A stretch of 64,000 bases of DNA from Candidatus Marinacidobacterales bacterium (GTDB taxonomy: Bacteria; Acidobacteriota; Vicinamibacteria; Marinacidobacterales; SMYC01): positions 224,001 to 288,000 of the forward strand of contig CBDCYI010000004.1 in NCBI GenBank assembly GCA_965224085.1, written 5' to 3'. The notes beneath the pieces were generated by a model, which had not been told where the DNA came from, made no database searches, and saw nothing but the letters and a program-made list of their open reading frames with translations. Of this stretch, positions 26,791 through 36,170 are shown in pieces; positions within the stretch are counted from its first letter, which is position 1; each line of letters starts with the position of its first letter. A program made the translations under genes and the position numbers.

Positions 26791-28445
26791 ATGCGCTTTC
26801 TGCCTTCCGCAACGCTCGCACTCTGTCTGACACTCGCCCACGAAGCTCAGGGCCAGCCGAGTTTTAAGGTCGTCCTCGATCCTGCCATCGAGAGCGGGCC
26901 GGTCGACGGCCGGATTCTTATGCTGTTTTCGACGCGCGGCGATGATGAGCCGCGCTTTCACGTTGTGAACCGACGCGCGCCCCAACCCTTTTTCGGCATC
27001 GACGTCGAAGCGCTCGCGCCAGGCGACGGTGCCGTTTTCGATGAGACCGTCCTCGGCTATCCGCTCGAGAGCCTGCGCGACGTGCCCGCGGACGACTACT
27101 ACGTTCAAGCGGTGCTCAACCGCTACACGACGTTCCACCGAAGCGATGGACATGTGGTCAAGCTCCACATGGACCAATGGGAAGGCCAGAAGTGGAACCG
27201 CTCGCCGGGAAACCTCTACAGCCGACCGGAAAAGATTCATCTTGACCCGAAAAAGCGCGCAACGTTCCACATCGAGCTCACGGAGAAAGTCCCTCCGATC
27301 GAGCCGCCGGAAGATACGGAATGGATCAAGCACGTGAAGATAAAAAGCGATCTCGTCAGCGCTTTTTGGGGCACCGACATGCACGTCGGCGCCGCCGTGT
27401 TGCTGCCTGAAGGCTTCGACGCGCACCCTGACGCGCGCTACCCCGTCGCCTACCTCCAGGGCCACTTCGCGACCACGTTCACGCGTTTTCGCGACGAGCC
27501 GCCGGAGTCCGGACGACGCCAACAATCGGCGCATGATTTTTACCGGGATTGGAGCTCGGGCTCGCTTCCCAACATGCTCGTCGTCTTGCTTCAGGACCCG
27601 AATCCGTTCTACGACGACGCCTATGCAGTCAACTCCGCGAACCTCGGTCCCTATGGCGACGCGCTGATCGAGGAGCTGATCCCCGAAGTCGAAGAGACGT
27701 TCCGCGCGATCGGCGAGCCTTGGTCCCGCACGACGTTTGGCGGCTCGACGGGTGGGTGGCGCGCGCTCGGGCGCAAATCTTCTACCCAGACTTCTTCAAT
27801 GGCGCTTGGGTGTTCTGTCCGGACCCCGTGGACTTTCGATACTTTCAGCTCGTCGACATCTACGACGATGAGAACGCCTACTATTCCGGAAGCGGCTTCA
27901 AGAAAGATCCCATCCGTCCTTGGATGCGCAGCGTGGACGACCAAGTCTTGATGACCGAGCGTGACGCGAGCATTCTGGAGCTTGTGCTCGGAACGCGCGG
28001 ACGCTCCGGCGATCAGATGGACGTTTTTCAAGCTGTCTACGGACCGGTCGGTGACGACGGCTATCCAAGTCTTCTATATGACAAGAAAACGGGTGTCATC
28101 GATAAAGAGGTGGCCACTTATTGGAAAGAGAATTACGACCTACGTTACATCCTTGAGCGCGACTGGGAAACGCTCGGGCCGAAGCTCGAAGGGAAGATTC
28201 GAATCTACATGGGGGACACCGACACGTTCTATCTCGAGGAAGCGACGCGTCTGATGGAAGAGCTCCTCGAAGGCACGGAGAATCCGCACTATCGAGGGAG
28301 CGTGACGTGGGGCAAGCGTGAGCCTCACTGCTACACGGGCGCCCCGCCCGGTAAGAGCTTTCTCTCTCACTACTTGCCAGGAATGGCCGACCACGTCACG
28401 CGCACCGCCCCGAAGGGAGCGGATGTGACCAGCTGGAAGTACTGA
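26791..28445 (+). pseudogene. Secreted putative esterase (alpha/beta hydrolase), frameshifted near 27770
   Basis: GGSTGGW nucleophile motif in frame 1 continues as AQIFYPDFF...CPDPVDFR in another frame; an apparent 1-nt deletion. Confidence 0.8.
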
Positions 28446-28492
28446 CGAAGTTTCTGGAGACCGATGGGATGAGCTCCCCGCGGAGCACATGC

Positions 28493-28500
28493 CCCGGCAG
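28493..28500 (+). repeat. Left target-site duplication CCCGGCAG
   Basis: Identical to 35780-35787; a 10-bp reading CCCCGGCAGG is also possible if the IS tip is GGGATG. Confidence 0.85.
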
Positions 28501-28597
28501 GGGGATGGTCGAGTAGCTCAGCCATTCGGCTTTCGCCCTCACAGATCCGAGCGTGCGGCTTTCCCGCACTCGGCTCCTCCTGAAGGTATACCCGAAA

Positions 28598-29977
28598 TCA
28601 GACAAGGCAAGGTAGTCGGGACGGAGTGAGGTGAGGGACTGGTAGGGGAAAGCGCTCCAACAACAAGTGAAAACGAGGCCAGGTCATTCGGCGCTGACTC
28701 CGCCGACGAAGGCTTCGAAACCACAACCGTGTCACCTCCTCAGAAAAGGATTGGAGAGAGCGGATGTTGCTGGGAAGTCCGTAGTACGCGTAGTGACCGC
28801 GCAGCACCTGGCAAAGCCAGCGATGCTGGACGGCGACTGGAGCATGCATACGTTGCTTCGCGCGAAGCCGTAGCGACTTGAGTTTGGCTCGTAGCCGCTG
28901 GCTCTGCGTTTTGCGCTTCACGACGAAACGGCCATCGCGGGTTCTCCCACAATAATGAGTGAAACCCAGGAAAGCGAACGTCGCACACCGCCGAAGGCCC
29001 CGTTGCTCGCGTGACAAGGAAGGTAATCTCCCGAACTCGAGCAAACGGGTCTTGTTCTCGTGGAGCGCAAGCCCGAATCGGGCTAGTCGCTCCTTGAGCG
29101 CTCTCATCATCCTGCTGGCATCGGTCCGATGCTGGAAGCCCATGACGAAGTCGTCAGCGTATCGCACGATGGAAATACGGCCTTGTGCTTCGAGCCGGCG
29201 CCATCGATGAACCCACAGATCTAGAACGTAGTGCAGAAAGACGTTAGCCAAGAGCGGGCTCACACCTGCCCCTTGCGGTGTCCCTTCAGTTGTCTCGCTC
29301 CACTCTCCTTTCTCCAGTACGCCGGCTCGCAACCACTGACGGATGAGTCGAAGGATGCGTTTGTCGGCGACCCGGTGCGAAAGCATCCGCATCAACCACT
29401 CGTGGTCCACCGAGTCGAAGAACTTGCGGATGTCCGCGTCGAGAACCCAGTTCACGCGTTGCGTCATGAGCGCGGTGTGGAGCGCGTGCAACGCTTGGTG
29501 CGGGCTCCGTCCGGGCCGAAACCCGTACGAGAACCCGATGAAATCGACTTCGTAGACGGCGCTCAAAACCTCGGCTACCGCTCCTTGGACAATCTTGTCT
29601 TCCAGTGCGGGGATGCCAAGAGGGCGCTTTCCGCCATCCGACTTAGGAATGTACACGCGCCGCACCGGTAGTGGTCGGTAGCGACCGGCGTGTACCCGCG
29701 AGCAAAGATCCTTGATGTTGCTCACGAAGTTCTTCTCGTAATCGGCGACAGTCTCTCCGTCGACACCAGCGCTTGCGCTGCGCTTCAACCGACGAAACGC
29801 TCGATAGAGCGCTTCGTGATCCACGTGATGCAGCAACGCAGTGAACCGAGCCTTTCTATCTCGCTTCGCTGCTTCGTTCACCCGCGTGAGATTTGGCGGT
29901 AAGGCGACCCGGCGCTGTGTCCGGACCTTAGCCCTCTCCCGTGGGTTCCCTCCAGGCCGATCCCTTCCCTCCACCAT
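28598..29977 (-). CDS. ltrA: Group II intron A reverse transcriptase/maturase (no endonuclease domain); start codon uncertain
   Basis: FTALLHH, SAGVDG, RPLGIP, GFSYGFRPGR, GTPQG, RYADDF, X domain LRGHYAYY. Confidence 0.92.
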   Translation of the reverse strand: MVEGRDRPGGNPRERAKVRTQRRVALPPNLTRVNEAAKRDRKARFTALLHHVDHEALYRAFRRLKRSASAGVDGETVADYEKNFVSNIKDLCSRVHAGRYRPLPVRRVYIPKSDGGKRPLGIPALEDKIVQGAVAEVLSAVYEVDFIGFSYGFRPGRSPHQALHALHTALMTQRVNWVLDADIRKFFDSVDHEWLMRMLSHRVADKRILRLIRQWLRAGVLEKGEWSETTEGTPQGAGVSPLLANVFLHYVLDLWVHRWRRLEAQGRISIVRYADDFVMGFQHRTDASRMMRALKERLARFGLALHENKTRLLEFGRLPSLSREQRGLRRCATFAFLGFTHYCGRTRDGRFVVKRKTQSQRLRAKLKSLRLRAKQRMHAPVAVQHRWLCQVLRGHYAYYGLPSNIRSLQSFSEEVTRLWFRSLRRRSQRRMTWPRFHLLLERFPLPVPHLTPSRLPCLV

Positions 29978-30004
29978 CTCGTTGCCTTCGATAGCTTCCT
30001 CAGT

Positions 30005-32037
30005 GTCGGGTCGGAGGGGGCGCACCGCAGCGCTGACCCCCGTCCGCCGCTCAAACCGGACATACAGTTTTCCCGTATCCGGCTTTCACAAAGGTTGGAT
30101 TATTCATCGCGGCTTGATGGAAGGAATCAGGAAGACAAAGCGTACGAGGCCCATCTCATCGTAGAGCTGACGCTCCGGGAGCTGCTTCCACCCCCGACAG
30201 CGCCAGCGTTTGAACCGATGCGACCAGATACGTCGCAGGATCCAACGATCGAGACGCGCGAAGAGCTTGCGGACGTGAGCTTTATGATAGTAAAGACCCC
30301 AACCGCGAATAACCGGGTTGATCTCGTCGATTAGCTGCTGCGTACTCACAGGAGCTTTGCGACAGGTCCGTCGCCGAATCTGATCCTTGAAGTGCTGGAG
30401 CGACTTCTGTCGAGGGTACGCGTACAGGTCACCCTTGCGGACACCCGTACGGATCTTGTGTGAGGGTAGGGCCAAAGGGCGACTACCCCGCTTGATCTTG
30501 TATCCCAAGAACTCGAAGCCGTGTGCAACGTGAACGATACGAGTCTTCTCCACGTTCAAGGTTACACCCAACGTCGTAAGGATCATCCGGGCTTCGGCCA
30601 GCACCTTCTGGGCCTCTGCCTTGGTGCAGCATGTCACGACCCAGTCGTCGGCATACCGCGTCAGGCGATAGCCACGATGGCGCATCTCCCGATCAAACGG
30701 AGTCAAAAGGACGTTACTTAAGATCGGTGAGACCACACCGCCTTGCGGTGCACCTTGCTCGGTCGGGAGCCGTCTCCCCTCCGCCATGCAGCCTGCTTTG
30801 AGCATGCTGCGAATAAGACGAAGGACGCGACCATCCGACACTCGCTTGGCAACAAGAGCGAGGAGCTTCTCATGGTCCACAGTCCCAAAGAAATTGGAAA
30901 GATCCGCATCCACGATCCACTCGTAACCCTCTTCGATCTCTTGCCAGATCTTGCGTAAAGCATCCTTTGTCGATCTTCCTCGTCGATATCCGAAGCTGGC
31001 GGCATCGAACACCTGCTCGAAGATCGGTTCCAACCGGTTCTGCAGTGCCTGCTGACACACGCGGTCATAAACGGCCGGAATGCCGAGCGGGCGGAACTTT
31101 CCCGGTTGTCCAGCCTTGGGAATGAGTTTCTGCCGAACAGGTAGTGGACGATAGGCATCGGTCTTGAGCTCCTCATGGAGTCGGTTGAGGTGCGCATCAA
31201 GCTGCTCCTCAAACTCGTCCAGAGTTTGTCCATCGATGCCACCGGCACCCTTGTTCCGCTTCACTCGGTTCCAGGCCAGCTCCAAGTTCTTCCGCTTGTA
31301 TATCTTGTCCACCAGAGAGTGGACCTTCCTCTCACCCGTTGGGTTCAACCAGGCCGACAGTTTCCTCGGACGATCACTTCTGGGTCTTTCACTAAAGGAA
31401 CTTATCCGCGTCATCGCCCTTACTCGTCTGTCATCCTTGTTGTCACCAACCACCTTTGCCAGCCCCCTTCCCCAGCCCACTCGGCTGCCGATCTCTCGAT
31501 CACACGACTTTCACCGCGCTTCAGGTACTATTGGGCTGTCCGACGACTCACCCGGCTTCACTTCCCATTTCGCTCTCGCTTATAGGGTCGCTTATCCCGA
31601 CGCCACTCGGGAACCCAATGAGCCCTCCTGGGGTCACGTCCAGATCTTCCGTACCGTGCCGTCCGCAAACACCTTGATTCGGTGGGTGAATGAGAACGCC
31701 TTCGCCTCCATAGTGCAGGCTCGACCTTGCCCCACCTTTGGCCGACCGGTTCATCAACGGGGTCGCCCCCTCGATTACGGCCCGGTACTGCTCCGCATAC
31801 CCTTCAGATTCCACCTCGCGGTGGACACCCTGTCCTCCAGTTGTCCAGTGGACAGAACCCGAACTTAGGTACATCCCCTTGGCAGTAGCCATCGTTTCCA
31901 ACTTCGTGCCCGTTTAGGGTTCTCCTTATCCGCGTTCCCCGGCCAGCGAGGCGTTACCCCCGCTTTTGGATATGGCGCTCCTCATCCGAGCACCAGAGGG
32001 ACTTCAACCTTCCTGATCTGGACGCTGCCCAGCACAC
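30005..32037 (-). mobile_element. Group II intron B nested in intron A (twintron)
   Basis: Starts GTGTG at 32037, ends ...CCGACCCGAC at 30005; domain V AAGCCGGATACGGGAAAACTGTATGTCCGGTTT; removal restores GATTCATAGT|ACTGAGG exactly as in the uninterrupted right copy. Confidence 0.92.
30104..31414 (-). CDS. ltrA: Group II intron B reverse transcriptase/maturase (no endonuclease domain); start codon uncertain
   Basis: NKGAGGIDG, RPLGIP, SFGYRRGRS, GAPQGGVVSP, RYADDW, INPVIRGWGLYY. Confidence 0.92.
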   Translation of the reverse strand: MTRISSFSERPRSDRPRKLSAWLNPTGERKVHSLVDKIYKRKNLELAWNRVKRNKGAGGIDGQTLDEFEEQLDAHLNRLHEELKTDAYRPLPVRQKLIPKAGQPGKFRPLGIPAVYDRVCQQALQNRLEPIFEQVFDAASFGYRRGRSTKDALRKIWQEIEEGYEWIVDADLSNFFGTVDHEKLLALVAKRVSDGRVLRLIRSMLKAGCMAEGRRLPTEQGAPQGGVVSPILSNVLLTPFDREMRHRGYRLTRYADDWVVTCCTKAEAQKVLAEARMILTTLGVTLNVEKTRIVHVAHGFEFLGYKIKRGSRPLALPSHKIRTGVRKGDLYAYPRQKSLQHFKDQIRRRTCRKAPVSTQQLIDEINPVIRGWGLYYHKAHVRKLFARLDRWILRRIWSHRFKRWRCRGWKQLPERQLYDEMGLVRFVFLIPSIKPR

Positions 32038-32433
32038 ACTATGAATCGGTCCGACTTCCGGCCTCAGCTCAGCACCGCGCTTCGGTTTTCCCTTGCGCGA
32101 CGCCCCCATCGGTGACCATTCCGATGGACCCGGCCGGACCTCCTGGGTCCCGAAAGGAACTCTTCGTACGTGATGTGGTCCACGACCCCGGCGGAGCGTA
32201 ACCATCTCGCGATAGCGATGGCCCACATGCTGCCTTCATTGACGGGAATCAACTCGGCCTTCCGCGATATTCAGCATTTCGAGGCTACATTCACACACCC
32301 TGCACGACCCCTGTCTACGCTTCGGACCCCGCGTTGCCACGACGCCCGCAAGACTCGGTCCCGACCTGTCCGCTACGACTTTTGGTCGGATTGGACTTCC
32401 ACCCATAGGCTCCTTTCAGTTAGCCCAGCGCAC

Positions 32434-32470
32434 TCCCGTCGGATGTTGAATTTGGTCGGGTAGCGGCGGC
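32434..32470 (+). repeat. Inner part of the IS256 terminal inverted repeat downstream of the transposase
   Basis: TCCCGTCGGATGTTGAATTTGGTCGGGTAGCGGCGGC, inverted relative to 33846-33879. Confidence 0.85.
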
Positions 32471-32484
32471 ACCTGTGAATACTC

Positions 32485-33780
32485 TTAGGCAGCAAACTCA
32501 TCGCTGTCAAGAGATTTCTGTTTGCTTCTAAGCGCGTGAACGAGAGCGCCCATATGGCGATAGCCTTTGATACGCCGGAACTTCTTCTCCGCCGTGACGA
32601 CGCCGAGAGCGGTCCATCGGCGAACCATCGAAGGACTCTTCCAACGCTTGACGTTTCTCGATACTCTTCGAATGGTTCCGTTGAGATTCTCAATGGCGTT
32701 CGTCGTGGCAAGAGACTGGCGAAGTAACTCGGGCAGAGCGAGCTTCACGACCGTGAGCGTCTCTTCCATCCCTTCGCGAAGGCTTCCGGCAGCTTCATCG
32801 TGGCTGTTTCGCTCGAGCCACGACACCAATGCCTGAAGTCGCTTGCGCGCCTTGTCGGCACTCTTGCACTTGTAGGCTTTCTTCATCGTCTGGAGCACGT
32901 AGGCGTGACGAGACTTGGGAAGGTACGAGCGAAGATTTCGGAGTTTATGGATCTGGCACCTTTGGATGACCGCGAGATCCCCCAACACGTCGACGAGTGC
33001 CTTGCGGATACCTTTGCCTCCGTCCACTACACAGAGAATCGACTCATCGACGCGCAAGCCTCGCTCGAGAAGGTCCTGCAACATCGCGGTGCACACCCGA
33101 GAGTTTTCCGTCGAGCCCAGCCATATACCCAGGGGCACCTTCGTTCCATCTATTGTGATACCGAGAGTTACGACGACGGTCTGGCCGGCCACCTCAAGGC
33201 CATCCATCATCAGTGCCGCAAGTTCGTACTCCTCTAGCCGCCGAGACAGGTATTGCTCGAGCTTCTTCGTCGTCTGGCTTACGAGGTGACGGCTGGCGGC
33301 ACTCTTGCTCGTGCCACGAGACTTCAACTTGGCCGCGGGTTTGTCCAGACTCCGTTCGTAATTTCGGGTCGATACCCCCACCAAGATCTGATTCAACACT
33401 CGCTCTGGAAGCGGGTCTTCTTCGCGGAAGGCTTCGAAGTGTGGAAGCGACGCCTCCTCACCAGACTTCGAACGCACTCGAGGTCGCGACACTTGGATGC
33501 GACGACCACCGAAGCTCAGCTCTCCGTTCGTGCTCCCCCAGTGGTTATGAGTTCGCTTCTTCTCGTGCTTGCCCTTCGGTCCCGCGATCTCCTCGGCGTC
33601 CTCTCTGAGCAGTAGGTGCAGAGCTGTCAGTCCTTGCTCGTACACCCATTCCGTCAGGTCCGCCTTCGTGGCAGCGATCCCAGCTATCATCGGTAGCAGT
33701 ATCTGACCGACTTGGCCAACTACCTTGCCCGTAGGCGAGTGCGTTTGCTTTTTTACTGGCTTCTTTGATTTCCTAGGCAT
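32485..33780 (-). CDS. IS256-family (Mutator-like) transposase
   Basis: GVSTRNY, LMMDG, VVDGGKG, IQRCQIHKLRN, TTNAIENLN; 431 aa, intact. Confidence 0.92.
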   Translation of the reverse strand: MPRKSKKPVKKQTHSPTGKVVGQVGQILLPMIAGIAATKADLTEWVYEQGLTALHLLLREDAEEIAGPKGKHEKKRTHNHWGSTNGELSFGGRRIQVSRPRVRSKSGEEASLPHFEAFREEDPLPERVLNQILVGVSTRNYERSLDKPAAKLKSRGTSKSAASRHLVSQTTKKLEQYLSRRLEEYELAALMMDGLEVAGQTVVVTLGITIDGTKVPLGIWLGSTENSRVCTAMLQDLLERGLRVDESILCVVDGGKGIRKALVDVLGDLAVIQRCQIHKLRNLRSYLPKSRHAYVLQTMKKAYKCKSADKARKRLQALVSWLERNSHDEAAGSLREGMEETLTVVKLALPELLRQSLATTNAIENLNGTIRRVSRNVKRWKSPSMVRRWTALGVVTAEKKFRRIKGYRHMGALVHALRSKQKSLDSDEFAA

Positions 33781-33845
33781 TGGTGGCTCCTTGTCCCCCT
33801 CTGGAGACGGTTGTTTGGCAGACCTATTTTTAGGCCGGCCAAGGA

Positions 33846-33879
33846 GCCGCCGCTACCCCAAATTCAACATCCGGCGGGA
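33846..33879 (-). repeat. Inner part of the IS256 terminal inverted repeat upstream of the transposase
   Basis: Reverse complement TCCCGCCGGATGTTGAATTTGGGGTAGCGGCGGC. Confidence 0.85.
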
Positions 33880-35772
33880 GTGCGCTGGGCTAACTGAAAG
33901 GAGCCTATGGGTGGAAGTCCAATCCGACCAAAAGTCGTAGCGGACAGGTCGGGACCGAGTCTTGCGGGCGTCGTGGCAACGCGGGGTCCGAAGCGTAGAC
34001 AGGGGTCGTGCAGGGTGTGTGAATGTAGCCTCGAAATGCTGAATATCGCGGAAGGCCGAGTTGATTCCCGTCAATGAAGGCAGCATGTGGGCCATCGCTA
34101 TCGCGAGATGGTTACGCTCCGCCGGGGTCGTGGACCACATCACGTACGAAGAGTTCCTTTCGGGACCCAGGAGGTCCGGCCGGGTCCATCGGAATGGTCA
34201 CCGATGGGGGCGTCGCGCAAGGGAAAACCGAAGCGCGGTGCTGAGCTGAGGCCGGAAGTCGGACCGATTCATAGTACTGAGGAAGCTATCGAAGGCAACG
34301 AGATGGTGGAGGGAAGGGATCGGCCTGGAGGGAACCCACGGGAGAGGGCTAAGGTCCGGACACAGCGCCGGGTCGCCTTACCGCCAAATCTCACGCGGGT
34401 GAACGAAGCAGCGAAGCGAGATAGAAAGGCTCGGTTCACTGCGTTGCTGCATCACGTGGATCACGAAGCGCTCTATCGAGCGTTTCGTCGGTTGAAGCGC
34501 AGCGCAAGCGCTGGTGTCGACGGAGAGACTGTCGCCGATTACGAGAAGAACTTCGTGAGCAACATCAAGGATCTTTGCTCGCGGGTACACGCCGGTCGCT
34601 ACCGACCACTACCGGTGCGGCGCGTGTACATTCCTAAGTCGGATGGCGGAAAGCGCCCTCTTGGCATCCCCGCACTGGAAGACAAGATTGTCCAAGGAGC
34701 GGTAGCCGAGGTTTTGAGCGCCGTCTACGAAGTCGATTTCATCGGGTTCTCGTACGGGTTTCGGCCCGGACGGAGCCCGCACCAAGCGTTGCACGCGCTC
34801 CACACCGCGCTCATGACGCAACGCGTGAACTGGGTTCTCGACGCGGACATCCGCAAGTTCTTCGACTCGGTGGACCACGAGTGGTTGATGCGGATGCTTT
34901 CGCACCGGGTCGCCGACAAACGCATCCTTCGACTCATCCGTCAGTGGTTGCGAGCCGGCGTACTGGAGAAAGGAGAGTGGAGCGAGACAACTGAAGGGAC
35001 ACCGCAAGGGGCAGGTGTGAGCCCGCTCTTGGCTAACGTCTTTCTGCACTACGTTCTAGATCTGTGGGTTCATCGATGGCGCCGGCTCGAAGCACAAGGC
35101 CGTATTTCCATCGTGCGATACGCTGACGACTTCGTCATGGGCTTCCAGCATCGGACCGATGCCAGCAGGATGATGAGAGCGCTCAAGGAGCGACTAGCCC
35201 GATTCGGGCTTGCGCTCCACGAGAACAAGACCCGTTTGCTCGAGTTCGGGAGATTACCTTCCTTGTCACGCGAGCAACGGGGCCTTCGGCGGTGTGCGAC
35301 GTTCGCTTTCCTGGGTTTCACTCATTATTGTGGGAGAACCCGCGATGGCCGTTTCGTCGTGAAGCGCAAAACGCAGAGCCAGCGGCTACGAGCCAAACTC
35401 AAGTCGCTACGGCTTCGCGCGAAGCAACGTATGCATGCTCCAGTCGCCGTCCAGCATCGCTGGCTTTGCCAGGTGCTGCGCGGTCACTACGCGTACTACG
35501 GACTTCCCAGCAACATCCGCTCTCTCCAATCCTTTTCTGAGGAGGTGACACGGTTGTGGTTTCGAAGCCTTCGTCGGCGGAGTCAGCGCCGAATGACCTG
35601 GCCTCGTTTTCACTTGTTGTTGGAGCGCTTTCCCCTACCAGTCCCTCACCTCACTCCGTCCCGACTACCTTGCCTTGTCTGATTTCGGGTATACCTTCAG
35701 GAGGAGCCGAGTGCGGGAAAGCCGCACGCTCGGATCTGTGAGGGCGAAAGCCGAATGGCTGAGCTACTCGAC
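33880..35772 (+). mobile_element. Group II intron A, right copy (uninterrupted, 1893 nt)
   Basis: GTGCG start, domain V/VI at about 35704-35772, ends AC; RT ORF inside. Confidence 0.93.
34303..35682 (+). CDS. ltrA: Group II intron A reverse transcriptase/maturase (no endonuclease domain); start codon uncertain
   Basis: Translation identical to 28598-29977; YADD motif. Confidence 0.92.
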   Translation: MVEGRDRPGGNPRERAKVRTQRRVALPPNLTRVNEAAKRDRKARFTALLHHVDHEALYRAFRRLKRSASAGVDGETVADYEKNFVSNIKDLCSRVHAGRYRPLPVRRVYIPKSDGGKRPLGIPALEDKIVQGAVAEVLSAVYEVDFIGFSYGFRPGRSPHQALHALHTALMTQRVNWVLDADIRKFFDSVDHEWLMRMLSHRVADKRILRLIRQWLRAGVLEKGEWSETTEGTPQGAGVSPLLANVFLHYVLDLWVHRWRRLEAQGRISIVRYADDFVMGFQHRTDASRMMRALKERLARFGLALHENKTRLLEFGRLPSLSREQRGLRRCATFAFLGFTHYCGRTRDGRFVVKRKTQSQRLRAKLKSLRLRAKQRMHAPVAVQHRWLCQVLRGHYAYYGLPSNIRSLQSFSEEVTRLWFRSLRRRSQRRMTWPRFHLLLERFPLPVPHLTPSRLPCLV

Positions 35773-35779
35773 CATCCCC

Positions 35780-35787
35780 CCCGGCAG
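35780..35787 (+). repeat. Right target-site duplication CCCGGCAG
   Basis: Matches 28493-28500. Confidence 0.85.
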
Positions 35788-35882
35788 GGCTTCGCTTCTG
35801 TCACGACCCTCGAACACGACTTGGCCGTTCACGAGGACGAGCTCGACCCCGCGAGCATATTGATGAGGCTGGCGGAATGTCA
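35780..35882 (-). pseudogene. Remnant C-terminus of a D-aminoacylase-like amidohydrolase, split by the IS (continues left of 28493)
   Basis: Reconstructed empty site reads TFRQPHQYARGVELVLVNGQVVFEGRDRSEALPG|HVLRG, resembling the C-terminal ...VNG...PGRVLRG of D-aminoacylases. Confidence 0.65.
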
Positions 35883-35917
35883 GCCATCGCGAACGATGAG
35901 CGGGCTACTGCAATTAT

Positions 35918-35956
35918 GATATTGAAATTGACTTTCACTTTCAGAAGAGCTATATT
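35918..35956 (+). promoter_or_regulatory. Sigma70-type promoter overlapped by a Fur-box-like site upstream of bfd-bfr
   Basis: TTGACT(35928)-17 nt-TATATT(35951); GATATTGAAATTGACTTTC matches 13/19 of GATAATGATAATCATTATC. Confidence 0.65.
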
Positions 35957-35963
35957 GGGCTCG

Positions 35964-36170
35964 ATGATCGTTTGTCTCTGTAAAGGCGTGACTGACCGCA
36001 CCATCCGTACGCTCGTGCGCGAGGGCGCGTGCTCCATCCGGGACGTCGGACGCGCGTGCGACGCGGGCCGTACCTGCGGCGGCTGCCGACCGACGATCGA
36101 CCGGCTCGTTGCGACAGAGACGAGGCAGCGCAAGTCGCCTCGCGGTATGATGAAGGGTCATGAAAGGTGA
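35964..36170 (+). CDS. bfd: Bacterioferritin-associated [2Fe-2S] ferredoxin
   Basis: MIVCLCKGVTD...CGGC, directly upstream of bfr. Confidence 0.9.
   Translation: MIVCLCKGVTDRTIRTLVREGACSIRDVGRACDAGRTCGGCRPTIDRLVATETRQRKSPRGMMKGHER

Follow-up and report, generated by a model that had tools for sequence, protein, structure and literature searches.

Copies of a group II intron occupy both terminal inverted repeats of an IS256-family element in a Candidatus Marinacidobacterales genome

Group II introns that live inside insertion sequences (ISs) are known, and in one described case both ends of the IS serve as targets. According to excerpts of Martinez-Rodriguez et al. 2014 (PMC4615759) and of a review (PMC5894124), RmInt2, a class D intron, uses both inverted repeats of ISRm17 in Sinorhizobium meliloti GR4. 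RmInt1, also class D, likewise lives in an IS, the IS630-family element ISRm2011-2; the excerpted review passages place its target "within" the IS rather than describing repeats, and report the argument of its authors that the intron blocks the spread of ISRm2011-2 (PMC5894124). RmInt1 has one site per IS. A comparable specialization on the recombination site of another mobile element is found in the IIC-attC introns of integrons, which in the excerpts covered belong to another class and recognize a DNA stem-loop motif rather than a 20-35-bp sequence. Here we analyze a locus in a window of 64,000 nucleotides, positions 224001-288000 of contig CBDCYI010000004.1 from Candidatus Marinacidobacterales bacterium (assembly GCA_965224085.1; genome G000 of this study, with 12 contigs, of which this is C4). 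At this locus one group II intron, intron A, is found in both terminal inverted repeats of an IS256-family IS, and a second, intron B, is nested in one of the two copies. A preliminary description of the locus knew of no earlier report of such a symmetric arrangement targeting terminal inverted repeats, but RmInt2 in ISRm17 is a published one (PMC4615759, PMC5894124, as excerpted). With RmInt2 as precedent, homing into the two inverted repeats of one IS is a known kind of behavior; it is the intron class, the IS family and the geometry that differ here.

The locus was dissected with Rfam, Pfam, a comparison of the window with itself and direct reading of positions 28300-36000. It opens with an 8-bp target-site duplication, CCCGGCAG (28493-28500, no strand), and the 7-bp IS tip GGGGATG (28501-28507, plus strand), which is severed from the remaining terminal repeat. 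The reverse complement of the intron 3′ end begins right after this tip, at 28508. The left intron A runs on the minus strand in two parts, its positions 397-1893 at 28508-30004 and its positions 1-396 at 32038-32433, and the 2033-nt intron B (30005-32037, minus strand, ends GTGTG...CGAC) lies between them in domain IV. The 5′ end of the left intron (GTGCGC on the minus strand) adjoins TCCCGTCGGATGTTGAATTTGG at 32433/32434, where the IS body begins (32434-33879, minus strand, including both inner terminal repeats). On the other side of the body, CCAAATTCAACATCCGGCGGGA meets GTGCGCTGGG at 33879/33880, the start of the right intron A, which is 1893 nt long and lies on the plus strand (33880-35772, GTGCG...CGAC); at 35772/35773 its terminal CTACTCGAC meets the tip CATCCCC (35773-35779, plus strand), followed by the second copy of CCCGGCAG (35780-35787, no strand). 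Both intron A copies stand 7 bp from an IS tip and read outward, and in the self-comparison they are 100% identical over positions 1-396 and 397-1893, with the 2033-nt insert between. When the introns are removed, the IS measures 1460 bp and has an intact transposase.

These junctions bear out the preliminary description where it had regained an IS256-family element of about 1460 bp, with an intact transposase and an 8-bp duplication, by removing the introns, and where it had placed an outward-reading intron 7 bp from each tip, with correct coordinates. It had also taken the 3.9 kb of the left arm for intron A; intron A is present there, but the arm is a twintron, in which the 2033-nt intron B is nested in intron A at a precise site.

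IS256-family elements typically carry imperfect terminal inverted repeats and produce an 8-9-bp duplication. The transposase of this IS (open reading frame [ORF] 32485-33780, minus strand, 431 aa) matches Transposase_mut in Pfam (E 1e-41, residues 52-388), a Mutator-type DDE transposase. Imperfect terminal inverted repeats can be read at the locus, and 8-bp duplications occur here, at a second locus on contig C11 and, as exact repeats, at 8 of 15 two-ended loci in the genomes of relatives. Neither the transposase gene nor the 99 bp in front of it is touched by the introns. In addition, a contig of run X23, from a related strain, joins position 28491 to 35779 with 103 letters on its shorter side. 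The 7287 bases that it skips correspond to the element plus one copy of the duplication, and the related strain therefore has a precise empty site with a single CCCGGCAG, in agreement with the duplications read on both sides of the element.

Because the two intron A copies form 100% identical inverted repeats of 1.9 kb, and short-read contigs break at their edges, the symmetric structure might have been produced by the collapse or mis-joining of repeats during assembly. Against such an artefact, the same architecture is present at three loci of G000 with different flanks and in an unrelated metagenome-assembled genome (MAG; locus L015), every junction type recurs with different flanks, and the boundaries of the empty-site contig fall exactly where predicted. 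We consider an assembly artefact extremely improbable. Flank contigs of runs X19 and X21 end 28 nt inside the structure, and contigs of X19, X21 and X1 cross its junctions by 21-30 letters; since we required 31 letters of a bridging contig, these were not counted as bridging.

Judged by their predicted ribozyme domains and reverse transcriptase ORFs, both introns classify as ORF-containing group II introns. Rfam matched domain V/VI (RF00029, 53.2 bits) at 28508-28578 on the minus strand and 35702-35772 on the plus strand, and domains D1-D4 (RF02005, 140.9 bits) at 32176-32399 on the minus strand and 33914-34137 on the plus strand. Intron B gave an RF00029 match of 41.3 bits at 30005-30087 (minus strand) and no D1-D4 match at the gathering score. 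The intron-encoded protein (IEP) of intron A, IEP-A, is a 459-aa ORF (28598-29977 in the left copy, 34303-35682 in the right) with a reverse transcriptase domain (RVT_1, E 6e-39) and a YADD motif, and IEP-B (ORF 30104-31480) has the same features (RVT_1, E 1e-42; YADD); Pfam matched a GIIM domain in the intron B ORF only. No endonuclease-type domain was found in IEP-A by Pfam at E <= 0.001, and IEP-A also lacks the class D tail motif LFVHW, though this is present in RmInt1 and RmInt2. With its insertion point 27 nt before the IEP-A start codon, intron B leaves the ORF of intron A uninterrupted. Intron A shares 69.9% nucleotide identity, over its positions 15-1893, with a disrupted intron on the S. 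meliloti plasmid pRmeGR4b (L092), whose IEP is broken. The review, in its excerpted text, states that the GR4 plasmid pRmeGR4b carries "a disrupted class E intron (S.me I4)" (PMC5894124), and on the basis only of this name and this identity intron A is apparently a bacterial class E intron.

We searched the 12 contigs by local BLAST with intron A, intron B and the intron-free IS and tabulated the junctions. The inner terminal repeat, ...TTCAACA[T/G]C[C/G]G[N]CGGGA, stands in front of all 11 intron A 5′ ends, and each of the 12 3′ ends leads into CATCCCC, beyond which the flanks are unrelated. The preliminary description held that the intron specializes on the terminal inverted repeat of the IS and called for a check for copies elsewhere; 23 of 23 junctions in G000 lie at the IS256 repeat and none at unrelated sites, and related introns use the same site, as described below. 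The inner repeat is kept at 14 ends, of which 11 carry intron A, two are empty (C4:895347 and C7:326) and one breaks off after GTGC. Among the four full-length IS copies, 7 of 8 ends are occupied. Three of these copies are occupied at both ends, which upholds the proposal of two homing sites per IS copy: the locus described here, C11:1214110-1223407, where both arms are twintrons and the duplication is CTCACGGA, and C5:2148291-2155234, where the right arm ends prematurely at intron A position 1572. The fourth (C4:893895-895347) carries a twintron at one end and no intron at the other, and the 72%-diverged IS relative at C9:650058 is empty as well. Several 5′-truncated intron A fragments retain the CATCCCC tip but have lost the IS, indicating that deletions follow invasion. 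Full-length intron A was found only in G000 among 41 genomes (a tally that includes G027); G002 has a 534-nt intron A fragment of 99.8% identity, again followed by CATCCCC.

Two further intron A loci in G000 have unusual surroundings. At C11:484183-487611 a rearranged copy consists of a full intron A on the minus strand, IS positions 1453-986 fused to intron A position 826, and intron A on the plus strand up to its 3′ end; its flanks show no duplication, and it looks like the outcome of an internal deletion or of recombination between copies. At L106 (C11:191500-197500) a full intron A lies 38 nt from the 5S rRNA gene that closes an rRNA operon, and only 17 nt of the inner repeat and the 7-nt IS tip are left around it.

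The same search found seven identical copies of intron B, at window positions 30005-32037 and at C11:1215607-1217639, C11:1219878-1221910, C4:891466-893498, C5:2152026-2154058, C9:391983-394015 and C9:853583-855615. Six are inserted between intron A positions 396 and 397 with identical junctions (...CATAGT/ACTGAGG). The seventh (...GGTAGT/AGCG) is about 270 nt downstream of an RF02003 D1-D4 match, which places it inside another intron. With all 7 copies inside group II introns, intron B seems to home only into other introns. Site-specific homing of one intron into another is also described, in the excerpts covered, for the nested introns of Methanosarcina acetivorans and for bacterial twintrons; here, unlike in those cases, the outer intron is itself in an IS end, giving three nested levels. 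The block CATAGTAC is kept across relatives of intron A.

Relatives of intron A were examined at 81 loci, 79 encoding relatives of IEP-A and two on S. meliloti plasmids, and each was scanned upstream for IS256-type transposases, using a profile made from the transposases of this study. In 14 of the 81, an ORF of this type or a fragment of one directly precedes the intron, on the intron strand in nine cases and on the opposite strand in five, which indicates that the relatives use both IS ends. Three of these transposases were confirmed as Transposase_mut and are 25-33% identical to that of the window. We then placed the loci on an IEP tree of 81 rows, which leaves out L027, L041 and L092 for their short ORFs and includes, by manual addition, the plus-strand copy of L015 and two outgroups of class D. 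One clade (SH-aLRT 98, 21 rows) contains all 12 rows with an upstream transposase, six with too little upstream sequence and three with no transposase; outside it, none (0/42) of the rows whose upstream sequence reaches at least 1.8 kb has an IS256-type transposase. The hosts of clade members are Bradyrhizobium, Sinorhizobium and several phyla represented by MAGs.

Alignment of these relatives gave intron 5′ ends of GTGCG or GTACG and 5′ exons made up of ...ACACCAC/TTCAAC, a variable stretch of 5 nt and GGGA. The first 7 nt of the 3′ exon are common within an IS type (CACGATC, CACGACC, CGGCACC or CATGATC) and the flanks then diverge, pointing to the same 7-bp offset throughout. One relative, L015 from a proteobacterial MAG, is another doubly occupied IS, with the tip CGGCACC and the duplication CGCCGTAA. 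A site 7 bp from the tip, used in IS256-family elements that are themselves only distantly related, is a clade-wide pattern.

A link with the repeat could also arise as a by-product, if a loosely defined intron target happened to occur in this IS and lay mostly elsewhere in other genomes. Distant relatives, with at most 62% IEP identity, do use other sites, and the close relative L014 has a different 5′ exon. This explanation nevertheless has to account for 23 of 23 junctions at one site in G000, for the CATCCCC that also follows the G002 fragment and for a constant 7-bp offset in transposons whose transposases are only 25-33% identical to that of the window, and we regard it as very improbable. 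Some of the more distant relatives (L044, L058, L066, L074 and L050) have, besides the main IEP, a different reverse transcriptase ORF with 29-36% identity to IEP-A; it is found 1-2 kb farther upstream, on the strand of the main IEP, and may mark further twintrons.

A close described intron is S.me.I4 on pRmeGR4b. Besides the 69.9% nucleotide identity over positions 15-1893, it has the same 3′ end, CTACTCGAC, and it is inserted between ...CACCACTCCCTGGGA and a 7-nt block, CATGATC, likewise with an IS256-type transposase upstream. It differs in its host phylum and in its IS, whose transposase is about 28% identical to the one here, and in the GR4 copy the IEP is broken. RmInt2 resembles intron A as a group II intron without an endonuclease domain that targets both repeats of an IS (PMC4615759), and in its relaxed target pairing (PMC4615759, PMC5894124), as far as the excerpts of these sources go. 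In contrast, RmInt2 belongs to class D and its IEP ends in LFVHW, which IEP-A lacks; the two IEPs are about 33% identical, RmInt1 and RmInt2 form an outgroup on a long branch in the IEP tree, and the ISRm17 transposase has DUF772 and DDE_Tnp_1 domains instead of Transposase_mut. We located RmInt2 on pRmeGR4c in four copies of 1887 nt, with CTAGTGC at -16 to -10, A as intron-binding site 3 (IBS3) and a GAAU loop in domain VI, all in agreement with the details given in PMC4615759. Only about 20 nt are conserved on the 5′-exon side of these four copies, which puts RmInt2 farther from the tip and reading inward. RmInt2 is therefore inserted about 20 nt from the tip, inward, with a 3′ exon that starts with A, whereas intron A is inserted 7 bp from it, outward, with a 3′ exon that starts with C.

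The S. meliloti loci L092 and L093 were considered as candidates for RmInt2 and rejected, since they have C as the first base of the 3′ exon and ACACCAC at -16 to -10, compared with an IBS3 of A and CTAGT(T/G)C for RmInt2 in the excerpted PMC4615759. Two of the four RmInt2 copies on pRmeGR4c (L101 and L102) have 3′ flanks unlike the IS interior, one of them encoding a NifX-like ORF; their targets may be solo repeats or ectopic sites. A literature search returned no description of class E introns at the ends of IS256-family elements; key early class E papers lie outside its coverage, and we do not claim that the arrangement is unpublished.

The way in which intron A might recognize the repeat was read from its predicted exon-binding sites (EBS), EBS2 at 34038-34043 and EBS1 at 34066-34071 on the plus strand of the right copy. 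Predicted EBS1, UCCCGU, pairs with positions -1 to -6 of the 5′ exon (CGGGA and one more base), and predicted EBS2, GCUGAA, faces -12 to -17 (UUCAAC); in L015 the predicted EBS2 is GUGGAA, which pairs with -12 to -17. The EBS1 loop, aligned to UUCCCGU of intron A, pairs at least 4 contiguous bases from -1 onward in 24 of 27 aligned relatives. This pairing is contiguous with the last 4-6 exon bases and comprises at least 8 different pairs, among them UCCCG/CGGGA, UCGCGA/UCGCGA, GCCAA/UUGGC and UCCCA/UGGGA. Predicted EBS1 covaries with its target across relatives, which supports both the EBS1 assignment and a real tracking of the target.

We think it quite probable that an IS256-family IS inserted here first, making the 8-bp duplication, that the apparently class E intron A, which lacks an endonuclease domain, then retrohomed separately into each terminal inverted repeat, and that intron B homed later into domain IV of the left intron A. 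The homing site would be the last ~25 bp of the IS, with a recognized target that extends from roughly -17 to +1, perhaps slightly farther, and the 3′ exon would consist of position +1 and the rest of the 7-bp tip. A target that lies wholly within the last 25 bp of the IS would be independent of the insertion locus and would occur twice in each copy. As the repeats are inverted copies, the same site would be offered twice on opposite strands, so that both introns come to read outward. Priming would occur at replication forks, by analogy with other introns without an endonuclease. The left intron would be transcribed by read-through from the transposase gene, which is on the same strand, and the right arm would need an outward promoter.

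The independence of these events was weighed from the divergence of the copies. Seven of the eight full-length intron A copies show no differences in 1893 nt and one shows 2, a near-identity that implies recent mobility. The four full IS bodies differ from each other by 2-17 of 1446 nt. The two closest, at C11:1218036 and C4:893895, are 2 nt apart; one has two twintrons and the other one twintron and one empty end. The arm that carries intron B also varies among the three doubly occupied copies. Because nearly all full introns are identical while the ISs are divergent, and because occupancy and the side of intron B differ, the sequences favor separate retrohoming into resident IS copies over the copying of a composite.

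It had been suggested in the preliminary description that the IS and its two introns might instead move together as a 5-7 kb composite, with the transposase still using the 7-bp tips. In line with such movement, the 8-bp duplications of two complete doubly occupied copies are not the same (CCCGGCAG at this locus, CTCACGGA at C11:1214110-1223407), the related strain cleanly lacks all 7287 bases, and the genome has no donor IS identical to this copy. However, no two composites share an IS sequence (they are 4-17 nt apart), compared with seven of eight full introns that are identical; the side of intron B is not constant among the three doubly occupied copies, and the closest IS pair is unlike in occupancy. 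Furthermore, the IS copies sampled in 10 genomes of relatives are free of introns, though G021 and G023 have about 100 copies, and among the loci of relatives with an upstream transposase a second close intron within 10 kb was found only at L015. While the different duplications stand, the patterns of divergence, occupancy and intron B lean against a mobile composite, which we judge improbable.

Several observations weigh against separate retrohoming into both repeats by a specialized class E intron. The IS of this locus is the outlier among the G000 copies, 13-17 nt from every other one, and its donor is therefore not in the assembly. Given the empty site in the related strain, the insertion of the IS and three intron invasions must all post-date the split between the strains, and a single insertion of a composite would be a simpler explanation than four post-split events. 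No read or contig among those compared spans the whole 7.3-kb structure, in which a 1.9-kb inverted repeat surrounds 1.45 kb. Predicted EBS2 has one mismatch to its target in intron A, and its register varies among relatives. In three rows of the clade (L014, L018 and L029), 1.8 kb or more of upstream sequence contains no transposase, and the 5′ exon of L014 differs. Finally, the class E label comes from a single sentence of the excerpted review (PMC5894124) together with sequence identity.

If intron A did home separately into each repeat, each invasion would have consequences for the IS. The 7-bp tip, where cleavage must take place, has been moved 1.9-3.9 kb from the inner repeat, and occupied ends would be unusable for transposition, the argument that the RmInt1 authors make for ISRm2011-2. 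The IS can therefore reasonably be expected to be immobilized at the DNA level by intron occupancy, with its transposase gene intact. The repeats themselves also vary in a way that may bear on homing. The four full IS copies vary at 17 columns, six of which are positions -6, -8 and -10 of the two repeats (window positions 32439-32443 and 33870-33874), and in relatives the letters at these positions tell the left repeat (AGCGGCC) from the right (ATCCGGC). Non-canonical letters are found at 4 of 13 ends in G000, mostly toward the opposite type, and in relatives at 5 of 271 left-type ends and at 3 of 150 right-type ends among the matches listed (of 231). A simple contiguous co-conversion tract fits only two of the four non-canonical ends, and two opposite-type ends occur in intron-free G023. 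The non-canonical letters may come from conversion of the 5′ exon during homing or from recombination between repeats.

A broader view, which we put forward only tentatively and consider doubtful as a whole, is that a whole class E sublineage lives as a dedicated parasite on IS256-family elements in different phyla. Its two exon-binding sites would be directed at two conserved boxes of the repeat, which transposase recognition presumably keeps the IS from altering; each invasion would immobilize the IS, and short conversion tracts in the 5′ exon may follow homing.

The locus indicates that homing into the inverted repeats of ISs is not a one-off of RmInt2, since it involves a second intron class, a second IS family and several phyla, always 7 bp from the tip. 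With 7 of 8 ends of full-length copies occupied, it offers a natural system for asking whether introns shut down transposons, as well as how an intron without an endonuclease copes with targets on both replication strands and how target pairing tracks transposon ends over evolution. There is also a consequence for annotation, as invaded IS ends resemble truncated ISs and the 7-bp tips are easily overlooked.

Of 20 relatives searched, 9 have the IS itself, with 91-97% identity, and a tenth has an IS that is 70% identical. In a sample of 33 IS ends from 18 loci in these 10 genomes, none (0/33) carries an intron, and at 32 of the 33 the inner repeat is joined directly to a CAT..CC tip; repeat and tip are contiguous at the empty ends in G000 too. 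G021 and G023 have about 100 IS copies and no intron A, and G001, G004, G012 and G025 are as low in IS copies as G000; we draw no inference from these numbers. In G021 and G023, two genomes of another family in the same order, the ~85-110 copies are 96-97% identical to the IS described here, and the high copy number, together with 91-97% identity across genera, suggests recent horizontal spread and bursts of transposition. Metagenome runs X1-X18, from marine, cold-seep and rock samples, contain 16-19% of the sampled words, and X1 contigs match parts of both the IS and intron A at 95-99% identity, indicating that relatives of both elements are present in such samples.

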